Shown here in pieces: positions 1-62,156 of a stretch of 64,000 nucleotides of DNA (its first letter is position 1; each line of letters begins with the position of its first letter). The stretch is from contig LFTO01000116.1 of the NCBI GenBank assembly GCA_001513335.1, positions 536 through 64,535 of the forward strand. Direction: 5' to 3'. Made by a program: the position numbers and the translations under genes. Below the pieces are notes generated by a model. The model saw nothing but the letters and a program-made list of their open reading frames with translations. It was not told where the DNA came from and made no database searches. This DNA is from Clostridiales bacterium DTU086. GTDB taxonomy: Bacteria > Bacillota > DTU086.

Positions 1-16
1 CGTCCCCTGTTTTATT

Positions 17-2858: not shown

Positions 2859-3815
2859 ATGAACTTTGTAGCTATTGATTTTGAAACTGCCAACTGTTCC
2901 CTGGGAAGTGCTTGTGCGCTTGGGATTGTAATCGTGGAACTAGGGGAGATAGTACATAAGGAATTCAGATTGGTACGACCCAAGGATCTTTATTTTTCTT
3001 CCTTCAATACCAGGATTCACGGCATTACCGAGAAAGATGTAATACACGAACCTGAGTTTAACGAAATTTGGCCCCAAATCCTGCCTCTCATTAAAGGCAG
3101 GAACCTGGTAGCCCATAATGCCTCCTTTGACATGAACGTTTTAAGGGAGGTACTCCTGCAGTATGAACTGCCGTGTCCTGATTTTCCCTACTCCTGCACC
3201 CTGCAGATTTCCAGGAGAACGTGGCCAGAATTAAGGAGCCACAGGCTAAATGTGGTTGCTGAATACCTGGGGATTTCCTTTAAGCACCACGATGCTTTGG
3301 AAGATGCTTTGGCCTGCGCCTCGATTGCAATTAAAGCTTGTCAAGTGCATAGAGCCCACACTCTTGAGGAACTGGCTGAAACACTGGATATCAACATGGG
3401 AACCACAGCCTGCATCAGGAGGCCGAGGCAATCCTATGCCTATGGTTACAGCTCCAAGTATCCCAACCCCAAGGATATCTGCCCGGATGTGAGTGAGTTT
3501 GATACCAAGCACCCTTTCTACGGGGCGGTATGCGTTTTCACCGGTAACCTGAAGACCATGTCCAGAAGGGAAGCCATGCAGAAGGTAGTAAACTGCGGTG
3601 GCTGCTGCAGCAATTCTGTGAGCAAAAGGACGCGTTTTCTAATCATGGGTGAAACAGATTATTACCGGGTGAAAGGGGAAAAGAGTGCCAAGTACAGGAA
3701 AGTGGAACAAATGATCAGTGAAGGCTTAAATATTGTTATTCTTGATGAGGAAAAATTTATTGAAATGCTGGGGCCTGCCGGGGCGAAAACAAATAACAAC
3801 ATTGCATCCAGGTAG
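2859..3815 (+). CDS. DnaQ-like 3'-5' exonuclease fused to a C-terminal BRCT domain
   Basis: DEDDh motifs are present (AIDFETAN; HNASFDMNVL; HDALEDA). The C-terminus FTGNL..SRREAMQKV..GG..SNSVSKRTRFLIMGE is BRCT-like. Confidence 0.75.
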   Translation: MNFVAIDFETANCSLGSACALGIVIVELGEIVHKEFRLVRPKDLYFSSFNTRIHGITEKDVIHEPEFNEIWPQILPLIKGRNLVAHNASFDMNVLREVLLQYELPCPDFPYSCTLQISRRTWPELRSHRLNVVAEYLGISFKHHDALEDALACASIAIKACQVHRAHTLEELAETLDINMGTTACIRRPRQSYAYGYSSKYPNPKDICPDVSEFDTKHPFYGAVCVFTGNLKTMSRREAMQKVVNCGGCCSNSVSKRTRFLIMGETDYYRVKGEKSAKYRKVEQMISEGLNIVILDEEKFIEMLGPAGAKTNNNIASR

Positions 3816-13905: not shown

Positions 13906-14109
13906 AACTTTTCCCTGGAGGGCGTTACAATGGCTGCAGTTTACCCAAAGTGACGGCATTTTACCGCAAGTGCAGGTTTTTGGTAATCCTGATGCGGGGT
14001 GTTCCTGAAAAATCCTGAATGCACCTTTACATCGTCACCCTGAGCGCGGGTCTCCCGTGTCATCCTGAGCTGAGCCAAGAATTTTCTGCAGTTACCAAAT
14101 ATTAGGGAG

Positions 14110-18929: not shown

Positions 18930-19056
18930 GATTTCGTTTATTCTAAAAGGTTGGAGGGTTCAGGGTCTAAAGGGCCTTAAGCGAGGCGGTTGTACTAGCG
19001 TTTAGAGGTCCGGTGGGCTCCTTGCCGGTGCAAAGAAGTTCTCAATACTGGGATTA

Positions 19057-19169
19057 CGAAAGCCCGTATGTATTATGGAATAGACTTGTTTCTGTTAAGC
19101 CTTGGGCGGCTTTGCCGTCGTTAACGGCGTGGGAGCTTGTCTGTAAGGAAATTATACATACGCTTAGCG
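19057..19169 (+). repeat. copy 1 of a ~113-nt imperfect long-hairpin element (structured ncRNA or MITE-like)
   Basis: The outer stem pairs CGTATGTAT...ATACATACG around an internal GGCGGC-TTT-GCCGTC hairpin. It is about 80% identical to the reverse complement of 42713-42826. Confidence 0.7.
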
Positions 19170-19418
19170 AAGAAAACGGTTGGGACCAGTGTCATCCGCA
19201 AGGGTTTACCGGAGGATCTCAGAAGCGAAGCGATGGTATTAGCACTAAAGATCCGGTGTATTGCTTGTGCGGGTGCATCGGTGCCCTCCAGATGAATCGT
19301 TTTCCCGAGTAGTTCGACGGGCGAAATTGTTCAAAATAAAAAGGAGAAACAGAAGTATATCTGTCCTCCCCTGCTGTGCAATTTTCCATTTAAAGACGCT
19401 GCTTTCCTGCCGTGGGAA

Positions 19419-36864: not shown

Positions 36865-36890
36865 GGGACCCTTTCACGGGTCTTTTTTGT
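36865..36890 (+). terminator. intrinsic terminator
   Basis: GACCC-TTTCAC-GGGTC followed by TTTTTTG. Confidence 0.65.
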
Positions 36891-39862: not shown

Positions 39863-40312
39863 TTGAGAGTCTCAATTATCAACGGACCAAATCTCAACCT
39901 TTTAGGAAAAAGGGAGCCCCAGTATTACGGAGAAAACTCTCTGCAAGAGATTAATGACCATATTAACGCCGCTGTAAGCAGGTTTGGTGTAGAAGTTGAT
40001 TTTTTCCAGTCAAATCACGAAGGGGAAATAATAGATAGAATCCAGGAGGCTTCAGCAGTAAGTGACGGTATTGTCATCAATGCCGGTGCGCTGTCCCATT
40101 ATAGTTATGCCATAAGAGATGCTCTTGCTGCAGCGGGGATACCTGTCGTTGAGGTTCATATGTCCAATATTTATGCCCGGGAAGAATTCAGGCACCGTTC
40201 TGTTCTCTCTCCCGTTGTTTCGGGGCAGATTTGCGGGTTTGGTGAGTACGGCTACGTAATGGCTGTTTATGCCCTCTTAAATGCTGCCGGAGGTTACCCA
40301 CAAGATGTTTAG
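39863..40312 (+). CDS. aroQ: 3-dehydroquinate dehydratase, type II
   Basis: MRVSIINGPNLNLLGKREPQYYG..HMSNIYAREEFRH. Confidence 0.9.
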   Translation: MRVSIINGPNLNLLGKREPQYYGENSLQEINDHINAAVSRFGVEVDFFQSNHEGEIIDRIQEASAVSDGIVINAGALSHYSYAIRDALAAAGIPVVEVHMSNIYAREEFRHRSVLSPVVSGQICGFGEYGYVMAVYALLNAAGGYPQDV

Positions 40313-41375
40313 GAAAAGGCTCAGCAGACTGCGTGAGCATTTTTCCCAAGAGGGAATAGACGCTCTCCTAATCAGCAGTAATTCTAACCGAGTTTATCTC
40401 AGCGGCTTTCAGGGAACGTCAGGTTGTCTCATTATAACTTCTGACGAGCAGATATTAGTAACTGATTTTCGTTATCTCAACCAGGCCAAGAGTGAAGCAA
40501 CAGATTACCAGATTGTATTGTTTAAAACAAGTCTTCTGGAAAAAATCAATGATTTGCTGAAAGAGAGACAAATTCAAACATTAGGTTTTGAATCCCAACA
40601 CCTGACTTATGAACAATATCATAAATATAAGTCCCAGTTGGAGGTTGATTTTATTCCGGTCTCCTCTCTGGTGGAAAAACTCCGGAAACATAAAGACCCC
40701 GCTGAAATAGAAAAGGTTAAAAATGCTGTATCTGTAGCTGACAAAACTTTTGAGCACATTCTGGGATTTATCAAGCCTGGGGTAACGGAGAGGGAATTAG
40801 CCGCTGAAATGGAGTATTTTATGCGGAAAGAGGGTGCAGGAGGTCCTTCATTTGACACCATCATCGCTTCGGGTTTTCGTGGGGCCCTGCCTCACGGTAC
40901 GGCATCAGACCGGGCAATATGCCCTGGGGATTTAATTGTTATGGATTATGGGGCAATTCTGGATGGTTACTGCTCGGACATTACCCGTACAGTTGTAGTT
41001 GGTACTGCTACATCGGAACAGCGGAAAATATACGATATTGTACTTGAGGCGCAAACCGAGGCACTTGGATTTGTGGAACCTGGCAGAAAATGCTGTGAGA
41101 TAGATGCTTTAGCCCGGGATATTATTGCCGGACATGGTTTTGGTGAAAATTTCGGGCACGGTTTAGGCCACGGTGTAGGGCTGGAAGTTCACGAAAAGCC
41201 TTCCGTCAATCCCCGAAACCAGGATATATTGGAGCCGGGAATGGTTATTACTGTTGAACCAGGAATATATATTGACGGGTGGGGCGGTGTCAGGATTGAA
41301 GACATGGTGCTGGTAACAGATAAGGGGTGTGAAATATTGACTCAATCTCCAAAAGAGCTCATCGAAGTTTCTTAA
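40305..41375 (+). CDS. Xaa-Pro aminopeptidase/M24-family peptidase
   Basis: M24 pita-bread metal ligands: [39 protein letters not shown]. The ORF track starts at 40281. Confidence 0.85.
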
Positions 41376-42238: not shown

Positions 42239-42673
42239 TTGAAAACGATTAGAGAAAATGTATCTTACCTGCAGGGATTGGTTGAAGGAGTCAACCTGAA
42301 CGCTACAACTAATGAAGGACGTGTTATCAAAGGTATTATTGATACAATAGAGTCCCTGGCGGAAGCTGTTGAACGGCTTGAAGGAAGGCAGTCGGATTTG
42401 GAAGTTTATCTTGACAGCCTTGATGAAGAGCTGATGGATATTGAGGAAGAGATTTATCGGAGTGAGGGCGAAGGGTACGTTGAAATGGAGTGTCCCGAGT
42501 GTCATGAAGTTGTATACTTTGACACGGATATTTTAGATAGTGAGGATACCATCGAGGTTACCTGCCCCAACTGCGACTCGGTGGTTTTTGTGAACAGTGG
42601 GGACTATGATTTTACTCCTGACAGTTTGGAAACTGAACACGTTCAGGATGGTGATAAAGAAATTCTTCAATGA
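42239..42673 (+). CDS. acidic zinc-ribbon protein (two CxxC pairs), hypothetical
   Basis: TTG start with a GGGAGG RBS. CPECHE...CPNCDS zinc ribbon. Very acidic. Confidence 0.55.
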   Translation: MKTIRENVSYLQGLVEGVNLNATTNEGRVIKGIIDTIESLAEAVERLEGRQSDLEVYLDSLDEELMDIEEEIYRSEGEGYVEMECPECHEVVYFDTDILDSEDTIEVTCPNCDSVVFVNSGDYDFTPDSLETEHVQDGDKEILQ

Positions 42674-42712
42674 ACTATAGAGCTTTGTTTAAATGTTGAC
42701 GCACCTGATTGC

Positions 42713-42826
42713 ATAAGCCCGTATGTATTATTCCGCTTACGGACAAGTTCGCACACCGTTAGCGGCGGCAAAGCCGCGCAGGGCTTAAGCGATACAAGTC
42801 CCGTTCCACAACACATGCGGGCTTTC
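42713..42826 (+). repeat. copy 2 (inverted orientation) of the ~113-nt long-hairpin element
   Basis: Its reverse complement aligns with 19057-19169 at about 80% identity, including the inner GCGGC-AAA-GCCGC hairpin and the AAGCCCG/CGGGCTT termini. Confidence 0.7.
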
Positions 42827-42982
42827 AAAAAATGTTTTGAAATGTCTCAAATTGGAACTACCTCCCATTCTGCTGTTGCCGTTCCAGTTTGTACTTCCAC
42901 TTTGTCAAGAGCTTAACCTTATGCTCATAAGTCGTTTGCAAAAGCAAAGGAAGCAATTCATATGGTTTGTCGACAGTTAGGA

Positions 42983-43008
42983 CTGCGGAAATCCGCAGCT
43001 TTTTTTTT
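42983..43008 (+). terminator. intrinsic terminator upstream of spoIIIAA
   Basis: CTGCGGA-AA-TCCGCAG followed by T9. Confidence 0.85.
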
Positions 43009-43061
43009 GTGCATAATCACCGGCCATGGATAATATCTATTACTAGAAAGGTGGGACAAGA

Positions 43062-56081: not shown

Positions 56082-56087
56082 ATATCC

Positions 56088-56748
56088 TGTGTAAATAGGG
56101 GTGGCGCAGTATTCTAGTCAAGTTTCATTACTCTGAAGGCGGGCCTAAAAATCCGTCAAAGGGCACATCGATGAAGTTCCTGGTGGTGGCTGCTGACGCC
56201 CAGTCGGGGGTTGCTGCTGGGAGTTAAGGGGTTGGGGCGATCTGCAAAGGCATGCAGGCGTTGACCCTAGCCCCGTGGAGACCCAAGTGCGTGGTGCAAA
56301 AACATATATTTTGATTACGGCTTGGGAGTAAACCTGTATTCGGTACGGAATAGTGCTGGGTACAGTGTAGCCTGCCTTGAGCGGCTCTGGCGGAGACGCA
56401 GAAAAAGGCAGTTATTGGGAGAGGCCTAACCCAATGATTGTCTTGGTTGAAACCTTTGCTGCAAAAGAGGCTAGGAGTAAATGCAACTTGTTGAAGAAAA
56501 TTCCTAGACTGTTTGCTTCGAAAGGCAAGGTGTGTCAGGGATTAAAGTGTGTGCTAAGTGGTAATCCAGTCCTGCTATCAATAGCAGACCTTTCCTTAAA
56601 GGGAAACCGCTGTTTCGGTGACGGGCAGTGGAAAGGTGGGAAACCCTGCTGGACCTAAGCCGCAAAGTTTACCTGACTCACTGCCACCCGGATACGAGAA
56701 TCCTAAAGACGGGGATAGGCTTCCTCGTCTTTCGTTCTATGTGCGGTA
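56088..56748 (+). ncRNA. probable OLE RNA (ornate large extremophilic RNA)
   Basis: About 660 nt with no credible ORF, lying between ispA and an OapA-like membrane gene followed by dxs. This is the known OLE context. It has its own strong promoter and ends in a hairpin GACGGGGA..TCCTCGTC followed by TTTCGTTCT. I did not verify the sequence motifs from memory. Confidence 0.6.
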
Positions 56749-60730: not shown

Positions 60731-61606
60731 GTGGCAGCAGCAATTGGAGTAGTTCTAAACGAAGAGAAACCCCAGGCAATCAAAACAGGTCAGGAACTGT
60801 ATCACTGGCTGAGCCGCCGGGACATTGAAATATACTTTGTTCATGAAACGGCGGAACTTGTGGGATATCCTGAGTGCGGCTTAGGCGAAAAGGACTTAAT
60901 CCAGGCCGTGGATTTTCTGGTTAGCCTTGGTGGTGACGGGACACTTCTTTATGCTGCCCGGATTGCCGGAGCCAGCGAAAAGCCTATACTGGGGGTAAAT
61001 CTTGGCAATTTTGGCTTTCTTGTTGCTGTGGAACCAAAAAACATTTATCACAGCTTGGAAAAAGTACTTGCAGGTGATTACATCTGTGACAAGAGAATGG
61101 TTATTAAATCTACCGTTTACCGGAATGGTGAGCCAACTGATGTGGCATACGGTTTGAATGATGTTGTTATTACAAAAGGGGGTTTTTCCCGCATGATTCG
61201 GCTGGCGACTTATGTTGCCGGCGAATATGTAAATAATTTCCCTGCAGACGGGATAATTGTGTCTTCGCCCACCGGTTCTACCGGGTACTCTTTGTCGGCT
61301 GGCGGCCCTATTGTATCGCCAAAAGTCGATGTAATCATTATTACTCCAATATGCCCACATACTCTTTATACACGACCGTTGGTTATTTCTCCTGAGGAAG
61401 AAGTCAGGTTAATTCTGGAGACAGCCGATTCGGAAGTAGTCTTAACAATTGACGGCCAGGTTGGTTTTGTCCTCCAAAAGGGAGATGAAGTTGTACTGGA
61501 GCGGGCTCCCTATAGAACTCAATTAATCAGGTTTCCTGAATGGAATTTTTACGATGTTGTAAGAAATAAACTGAACAAGGGAGAAAGAAATGGCCAGGCT
61601 TTTTAG
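60731..61606 (+). CDS. nadK: NAD(+) kinase
   Basis: GTG start with an AGGAGG RBS. GGDGTLL motif, DGIIVSSPTGSTGYSLSAGGP. Confidence 0.9.
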   Translation: MAAAIGVVLNEEKPQAIKTGQELYHWLSRRDIEIYFVHETAELVGYPECGLGEKDLIQAVDFLVSLGGDGTLLYAARIAGASEKPILGVNLGNFGFLVAVEPKNIYHSLEKVLAGDYICDKRMVIKSTVYRNGEPTDVAYGLNDVVITKGGFSRMIRLATYVAGEYVNNFPADGIIVSSPTGSTGYSLSAGGPIVSPKVDVIIITPICPHTLYTRPLVISPEEEVRLILETADSEVVLTIDGQVGFVLQKGDEVVLERAPYRTQLIRFPEWNFYDVVRNKLNKGERNGQAF

Positions 61607-62156
61607 TAACGCAGTAACCCTGTCACATAAATTTATTGCTGAAGTTGTCTGCTTGGGTGATACTGTTATTGATGCAACAGTAGGCAATGGTAGTGATACG
61701 CTGTTTCTGGCGCAATTAGTAGGTGCCACAGGGCGGGTTATAGGATTTGATACTCAACCGTCCGCCCTGGAAAGGACCGGAGACAGGCTTAAGGAGGTTG
61801 GGCTCAGACAACGGGTTTCCTTAATACATTCGGGACATGAGAACCTAACCAAACATGTTAAGGAGCCGGTTAAAGCGTGCATGTTCAATCTAGGGTACCT
61901 TCCCGGAGGAGAACACAGCATCGTGACTCTCCCGGGGACAACGAAAGCGGCTATTGAGCAGGCTCTGACTGTCCTTGAAAGGAACGGGTTGATTACAGTG
62001 GTTATTTATACCGGGCACACAGGGGGAACCGAAGAAGCAGCGGCTGTTGCTGAAGTGGTATCTAAACTGCCGCAACACCTCTGGGATGTAGCCGAAATTA
62101 CCTTTCCAAACCGAAAAAATCACCCGCCATATTTGTTGACAATCCAGAGGAGGTGA
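61590..62156 (+). CDS. SAM-dependent methyltransferase of the YtqB/MnmM (rRNA_methylase) family
   Basis: VIDATVGNGSDTLFLA..GRVIGFD..HTGG; about 188 aa as in YtqB. Confidence 0.6.
   Translation: MARLFSNAVTLSHKFIAEVVCLGDTVIDATVGNGSDTLFLAQLVGATGRVIGFDTQPSALERTGDRLKEVGLRQRVSLIHSGHENLTKHVKEPVKACMFNLGYLPGGEHSIVTLPGTTKAAIEQALTVLERNGLITVVIYTGHTGGTEEAAAVAEVVSKLPQHLWDVAEITFPNRKNHPPYLLTIQRR

Follow-up and report, generated by a model that had tools for sequence, protein, structure and literature searches.

A dispersed and recently mobile family of hairpin repeats beside terminator hairpins in an uncultured digester lineage of Bacillota

Classical MITEs such as Correia, ERIC, bcr1 and Nezha are non-coding repeats of 200-400 nt that contain a long hairpin, are dispersed in the genome and are polymorphic between close strains. 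PATE, which are derived from IS200/IS605, have subterminal hairpins at both ends and insert 3' of a fixed 4-5-nt target without a TSD. REPINs are extragenic hairpins of ~90-115 nt, in which two conserved short REP palindromes surround a variable spacer and pairing rather than sequence is kept, and they are defined by the presence of the same repeat at a RAYT gene. A genome with a REPIN system has one RAYT gene and tens to hundreds of REPIN copies. To our knowledge, REPINs do not duplicate their target. It has been proposed that they act as single-stranded DNA (or RNA) hairpins (PMC3337134). Group 1 RAYTs occur in Clostridia and are weakly associated with REPs (PMC5581495). BOX, RUP and SPRITE of Streptococcus pneumoniae and the enterobacterial BIMEs are short non-coding repeats with a high degree of base pairing. 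None carries its own transposase, and strains can be told apart by new insertions (PMC3049150).

Here, we have analysed a stretch of 64,000 nt from Clostridiales bacterium DTU086 (contig LFTO01000116.1, positions 536 to 64,535), referred to as the window, in which a structured region lies between a zinc-ribbon gene and the sporulation gene spoIIIAA. We propose, with a probability of roughly 0.7, that this region is one copy of a new family of small, non-coding and modular mobile repeats, made of a hairpin (H) that is usually joined by a second module (X), and that it is a passenger at this site. The host of the family is an uncultured spore-forming lineage of Bacillota that lives in anaerobic digesters. 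The family is dispersed and recently mobile, as three insertions differ between two ~94% identical genomes. It lands in the 3' flanks of genes, beside or inside intrinsic-terminator hairpins. One strand of H is consistently the better folder, and H and X behave as separate modules. The features are collected in Table 1.

Table 1. Features of the insertions and their surroundings (window positions, except where a locus is named)
Feature	Position	Strand	Remark
RAYT-like Y1/HUH transposase, 259 aa	L045 1749-2528; L043 4163-4942		directly upstream of window position 1
Insertion C, 389 nt vs 57 nt in L033/L034 (sister genome)	18930-19318		contains H copy 1
X-like module upstream of H copy 1	18979-19032	+	direct repeat of 19223-19277, period ~244 nt
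H copy 1, most decayed copy, 2-nt deletion in basal stem	19058-19166	+ (sense)	
X-like module downstream of H copy 1	19223-19277	+	
Empty target of insertion A: terminator hairpin GGACCCTTTCACGGGT, AMP-binding gene	36866-36881	+	empty in window
Zinc-ribbon ORF, 144 aa, CxxC...CxxC	42239-42673	+	ORF list
Insertion B, 304 nt, replaces 15 nt of sister genome	42677-42980		identical in L001, L003
H 3' extension GCAATCAGGTGCGTCAACATTTAAACAAAGCTC	42680-42713	-	common to L042 and L004 copies; marks one element end
H copy 2	42714-42826	- (better-folding, 'sense')	fold and alignment
Spacer and H 5' extension; TTCCAA...CATTTTTTGAAAG common to L039/L042a subfamily	42827-42886	-	
Module X	42887-42977	+	88% identical to L042 10355-10431
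Intrinsic terminator, stem-loop CTGCGGAAATCCGCAG at 42983-42998, T-run to 43008	42983-43008	+	host-owned
spoIIIAA	43062-44075	+	PF19568 (Spore_III_AA) on identical contig L001

Three insertions in two closely related genomes

The layout of the locus agrees with that given in an earlier note on this DNA. The zinc-ribbon ORF ends at 42673, and the strong terminator downstream is a GC stem-loop followed by a T9 run. The second hairpin copy, which had been placed at 42713-42826, starts one nucleotide later and is an inverted match of H copy 1 with 81-83% identity (blastn E = 4e-22), a similarity that is far beyond chance. As described previously, read-through from the zinc-ribbon gene would transcribe the element in the sense opposite to copy 1. 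Such a transcript carries the antisense form of H: the sense strand is the plus strand in copy 1 and the minus strand in copy 2. The gap between 42673 and 42983 holds no credible ORF, again as stated before: its ORFs are at most 53 aa long with zero Pfam matches. Moreover, the frame that is common to H copies 1 and 2 is disrupted by 1-nt indels, and the gap region is therefore non-coding. Protein coding was rejected for the elements on these grounds, since the 53-, 47- and 99-aa ORFs over them have no Pfam match and the shared frame is broken.

The zinc-ribbon protein itself (homologues P0001-P0018) is kept between efp and spoIIIAA throughout the lineage and is 94% identical between the window and the closest related genome. 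It matches zinc-ribbon families of Pfam at sub-threshold scores only. Its homologues come from metagenome assemblies only and carry contradictory source names ('phage FluMu protein Com', 'AraC family transcriptional regulator') that look like misannotations.

The closest relative is represented by four independent assemblies (L004-L007), which share 93-96% DNA identity with the window over 41 kb and which we call the sister genome. The alignment between the two ends at 42676 and restarts at 42981, and insertion B comprises the entire 3' region of the earlier note. In the sister genome, there are 18 nt from the zinc-ribbon stop codon to the same terminator, which is followed by the same spoIIIAA leader. 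L001 and L003, two further samples from the population of the window, carry insertion B in identical form. The terminator is kept in relatives that do not have the insertion and lies outside the element, and the 53-nt spoIIIAA leader (43009-43061) has ~2 differences from that of the insertion-free relatives. Among the distant relatives, L008 and L011-L013 have short gaps of 100-140 nt in which the hairpin is absent, and it is also absent from the gap of 282 nt in L009. A comparison of related efp-spoIIIA regions had been suggested before, on the argument that a region found without the element and without conservation would mark a passive insertion. The comparison goes further, in that L004-L007, L008 and L011-L013 are without the whole ~300-nt region while terminator and leader are kept, and a passive insertion is what these alignments suggest, in a strong form. 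Insertion B appears to be recent, as it is lacking in the closest related genomes.

Two more sites differ in the same way. The 57 nt that insertion C replaced included a terminator-like hairpin of the sister genome. Insertion A is found in the sister genome only, where it measures 251 nt (L004 4377-4627) and contains X and H, the latter at L004 4485-4597. It is bracketed by a perfect 16-nt direct duplication of GGACCCTTTCACGGGT, which is the terminator stem-loop itself. Insertions A, B and C are the three largest indels across the 41 kb aligned, with the caveat that intergenic replacement via recombination with diverged strains could mimic some of these insertions.

Smaller differences between the two genomes were also seen. 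A 146-nt segment upstream of a helicase gene (L033 7464-7609) is missing at window ~15718; the segment has no relation to H, and a called ORF of 52 aa overlaps it. The 25-nt tandem repeat TGAGCACAGCGCTCCCGTGTCATCC has 5.4 units between the AdoHcyase and carboxyltransferase genes at L033 5686-5821 and only ~1.5 units at window ~14040-14090, and its copy number therefore differs between strains. The gene of an Xaa-Pro peptidase (Peptidase_M24), intact in the window at 40281-41375, appears as two overlapping calls in L004 8064-9135, which is either a frameshift or an assembly error.

The H hairpin, module X and their copies

H is an imperfect extended hairpin of 113 nt. Its 17-bp basal stem is formed by AAGCCCGYATGTRTTRT and AYAAYACATRCGGGCTT (AAGCCCG.../...CGGGCTT), and its interior consists of two internal helices and an apical GCGGC-UUU-GCCGC stem-loop. 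In an alignment of eight copies that was fitted to the structure model, 92% of the cells are paired and 8 of the 36 pairs show double compensatory changes, such as GCCCG/CGGGC to GGCCG/CGGCC or U-A to C-G. The covariation score was reached by none of 500 shuffles, and pairing fell to 30-45% when the partners were slid by 1-3 columns as a control. The hairpin is kept up by compensatory substitutions; as the ~10 known loci come from at most a few genomes and are related by descent, these figures, like those on strand bias below, speak for the maintenance of pairing and do not count independent events. Conservation is even along all 113 nt.

The two strands of H do not fold equally well. In each of the six complete copies, the sense strand folds with a gain of 4-9.5 kcal/mol over its complement, as mismatched positions form G.U pairs there (22, vs 8 on the other strand). 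The antisense form of copy 2 is still strongly folded at -43.8 kcal/mol. The earlier note had considered a function that does not depend on orientation. H occurs in both orientations. With one strand preferred in six of six complete copies, its function would not be fully independent of orientation at the level of sequence.

At least 10 H loci were found, all of them in biogas or digester metagenome assemblies. A pattern scan of metagenomes gave five good and two degenerate copies, on four contigs (L039-L042) of LFRM01, an assembly from a biogas reactor (PMC4736482). Walking off the 3' end of the window revealed a further copy ~10 kb beyond it, at L046 15895-15986 (minus strand) and L047 12863-12937 (minus strand), in both cases cut off by the locus end; the L046 and L047 assemblies carry a protein identical to that of window 61590-62156. 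The density is three copies per ~75 kb of this genome. For the DUF3792 neighbour of copy 1, an exact look-up gave no match, and its comparison loci were found by homologue search.

Every copy is intergenic and lies just 3' of a housekeeping gene, in either orientation; the genes on the 5' side include glnS, lysS and those of a thiamine pyrophosphokinase, a Na/Pi transporter and a spore protease, among others. Four copies sit at contig ends, as expected for a repeat that breaks assemblies. In L040, one 484-nt gap between convergent genes holds two copies head to head (3205-3320, minus strand; 3344-3456, plus strand), a decayed one of 40 bits and an intact one of 129 bits. An 11-nt direct repeat, AAAAGCCCTCC, brackets the intact copy (the L040a insertion). 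This suggests an insertion into or beside an older H copy.

Within the collections searched, the family seems to be confined to this digester lineage. A 21-base pattern matching seven of the eight known copies gave no true H in 185,579 representative genomes; its sole match, an unrelated Devosia contig, was rejected. Distant blastn found no plasmid or phage homologues, and three pattern scans of viral contigs gave chance matches only. Rfam gave zero matches to the elements, both in a search of the window at gathering thresholds and at E <= 10 for all three insertions, and a known RNA family was rejected for H on this basis. The same search of the window identified a full-length OLE (ornate large extremophilic) RNA at 56085-56703 on the plus strand (RF01071, 513.7 bits), which fits an anaerobic Bacillota host.

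Homology extends beyond H on both sides. On the left side of copy 2, it continues for ~22-35 nt, to about 42680-42692 in the window, and copy 2 shares this 3' extension with L042a/b and L004. On the 5' side, it spans ~25 nt and holds within subfamilies. Module X is ~80-90 nt long; diverged forms adjoin H in L004, L040 and L039, and copy 1 is flanked by one on either side. X occurs with H in six loci, and the arrangement varies. The order is H-X in L004, L042b and L040b, an inverted X precedes H at window copy 2 and in L039, copy 1 has X-H-X, and L041 has H alone. In the window, in L042 and in L004, the outer end of X, ...TTTGTCGACAGTTAG and variants of it, adjoins a GC hairpin or terminator, and the L040a insertion ends in a similar terminus, ...CGGACAGTTGGG. 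Outside H and X, each insertion consists of locus-specific sequence. That insertion C might be one long palindrome was rejected, as its fold has z = -1.1 and the similarity of its flanks is direct and not inverted.

Effect at the spoIIIA locus and rival readings

With insertion B, the zinc-ribbon gene has a 3' UTR of about 320 nt instead of about 20 nt, and the insertion lies 80 nt upstream of spoIIIAA. This position had invited a regulatory interpretation, in which the insertion would regulate the spoIIIA operon or the zinc-ribbon gene in cis. Position is the one argument for it. We regard this reading as very improbable, since the element is absent from all relatives examined, in which efp, the zinc-ribbon gene, the terminator and spoIIIA are syntenic and the leader is nearly identical; relatives without the region thus keep both terminator and leader. 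In addition, a strong terminator stands between the element and the promoter region, and the same element is found beside unrelated housekeeping genes elsewhere. As insertion B lies upstream of the conserved terminator, it would be insulated from the spoIIIA promoter region. Judged from the alignments, insertion B is probably a passenger that adds ~300 structured nt and leaves the terminator and the promoter region of spoIIIA untouched. For annotation, this would mean that the tempting inference of a sporulation regulator from a structured element 'in front of spoIIIA' is wrong here.

It is also conceivable that H is a small structured RNA gene, or several, borne by a mobile element, with the better-folding strand transcribed as a trans or antisense regulator. 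The folding preference in all six complete copies through G.U pairs, and helices that are maintained by compensatory changes, would be in line with such a gene, and one subfamily (copy 1, L041, L040a and L004) has what we read as a -10-like hexamer (TATAGT, TATAGC, TAGAGT or AATACT) 7-9 nt upstream of the hairpin base. However, there is no conserved -35, a promoter scan of the sense strand was empty inside either window insertion, and the subfamily of copy 2 has a different 5' flank (TTTTTTG) without a -10-like box. No terminator follows H, the copies point either way with respect to the flanking genes, and Rfam has no matching family. G.T wobble in single-stranded DNA accounts for the strand bias equally well. 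We consider an RNA gene unlikely. An independent antisense transcript of insertion B, as suggested earlier, may exist, but the strand concerned has no promoter-like site within the insertion, and conservation of the 5' sequence of H does not hold across subfamilies. An internal sigma-70 promoter was rejected, as the sole match on the minus strand (43059-43030) is conserved host sequence and the count equals the shuffle expectation. A role in the 3' UTR, with the element co-opted as mRNA stabiliser, attenuator or substitute terminator, has precedent in that REP/BIME and pneumococcal SPRITE/BOX have been proposed as 3'-UTR elements (PMC3049150, PMC3337134). All copies lie just 3' of genes, and the base of H has the form A-tract, GC stem and U-tract (AAAAGCCCG...CGGGCUUUU in L040a). 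Furthermore, the terminator-like hairpin of the host is gone in insertion C, and predictions show no other terminator in the gap between these convergent genes. We nevertheless find this role quite unlikely: at the spoIIIA locus the original strong terminator is still downstream and a new one is not needed, H is followed by a U-tract of just 3-4 nt, both orientations relative to the upstream gene occur, and sister genomes without the element show that it is dispensable.

We favour instead a family of mobile repeats. The H element would be mobilised in trans, and the recognised form would probably be the hairpin of one specific strand. A strand-specific hairpin suggests that the intermediate is single-stranded DNA or, less likely, RNA, and REPIN/RAYT and IS200/IS605-like systems provide the precedent for single-stranded DNA (PMC3337134, PMC6006769). 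That the fold is strand-specific while the orientation to host transcription is mixed speaks for a single-stranded form being under selection as the element propagates. Integration would be imprecise, with either duplication of the target hairpin (16 and 11 nt) or small deletions (15 and 57 nt), and joining at breaks or at replication stalled by terminator hairpins would fit better than DDE cut-and-paste. One could speculate that a cruciform or hairpin is cut on both sides and the element is joined in between, which would duplicate a whole palindromic terminator.

Relation to known repeat classes and the RAYT-like gene at the window edge

The earlier note had also named a MITE as one option, which is right in its essentials. 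The insertions have the size and non-coding nature of a MITE (251-389 nt, with internal ORFs of at most 99 aa and no Pfam match), and their dispersal agrees with it as well, three sites being occupied in just one of the two genomes, with H in both orientations. The ends of the insertions do not agree. The candidate for terminal inverted repeats (TIRs) in insertion B (~23 nt with indels) was matched by 47 of 500 shuffles and is not significant, and insertion A has none, its score being reached by 200 of 500 shuffles; classical TIRs were rejected, as they are no better than in shuffled controls. Nor is there a fixed short TSD, with perfect 16 nt in L004, 11 nt in L040a and none at the two window copies (15- and 57-nt replacements). 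As the junctions are heterogeneous, the moving unit is not cleanly defined. No cognate IS was found in these incomplete assemblies, and no transposase lies next to any H copy; L043 contains IS3-type genes.

The closest analogues are BOX, together with RUP and SPRITE, and BIMEs. Like H, they are short, non-coding and highly base-paired, and the modules of BOX and BIMEs vary in number and orientation, a mosaic behaviour that H and X show as well. They are also found preferentially 3' of genes and in gaps between convergent genes, and BOX has a Firmicute host. In contrast, H has no sequence similarity to boxA/B/C or REP units, has a single long hairpin core of 113 nt, and adjoins terminator hairpins, of which one was duplicated as a whole.

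REPINs come next. Like them, H is extragenic and is a hairpin that is maintained by compensatory changes. Unlike the two conserved palindromes of a REPIN, however, H is evenly conserved, and its ends, AAAGCCCGYATGT, are not themselves palindromes. PATE have two subterminal hairpins while H has one central hairpin; the strand-specific fold would be compatible, and no common tetra- or pentanucleotide is seen at the three mapped junctions. H thus lacks what defines classical MITEs and REPINs. In kind, we would describe H elements as non-autonomous interspersed hairpin repeats, which by analogy would work like BOX, BIME or REPIN and share no sequence with them.

Such a repeat family (H, X) in uncultured digester Bacillota is evidently still moving. 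As three insertions separate ~94% identical genomes, it could be useful as a strain marker, and it also causes contig breaks in metagenome assemblies.

The RAYT-like gene at the edge of the window is a candidate for the enzyme that would mobilise H in trans. The gene was seen in the sister genome and in another assembly. Its product has the HUH motif NHVHLL and the tyrosine motif RYIHQNP, and it scores 59 bits with PF01797 and 79.1 bits with NF047646 (REP-associated tyrosine transposase), for which the cut-off is 80. The gene is bracketed by inverted repeats AACAGGGGACGGTTCTTTGTT of 21-27 nt, and the window starts inside the right one, window 1-16 being its tail. Since these flanking repeats are not H, the gene does not carry the repeat that would define H as a REPIN, and a covariance model found no H in the RAYT-like locus. 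A homology between the 3' extension of H and the flank of the RAYT-like gene, suggestive by eye, was rejected, as 113 of 1000 shuffles reach its score, which is chance level. The RAYT-like gene is a lead only as mobiliser of H and is not demonstrably linked to it.

A bolder version of this idea, to which we would give only a small chance, is that H elements are single-strand hairpin replicators that are moved by this HUH transposase, whose gene would be single-copy, seek out extruded terminator hairpins and duplicate them as a whole on insertion. If this were true, H would extend REPIN-like systems beyond Proteobacteria, and both its choice of target and its type of junction would be new. The link to terminator hairpins, the clean 16-nt duplication and the nearby RAYT-like gene together make the family a modest test case for the target choice of non-autonomous hairpin repeats in Firmicutes.

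We would also like to point out that AACAGGGGACGGTTCTTTGTT is not confined to the window edge. Two more copies, at 700-715 and 921-936, follow a spermine-synthase-like gene, and a decayed duplicate of the 3' end of the transposase lies at ~770-830, within 700-940.
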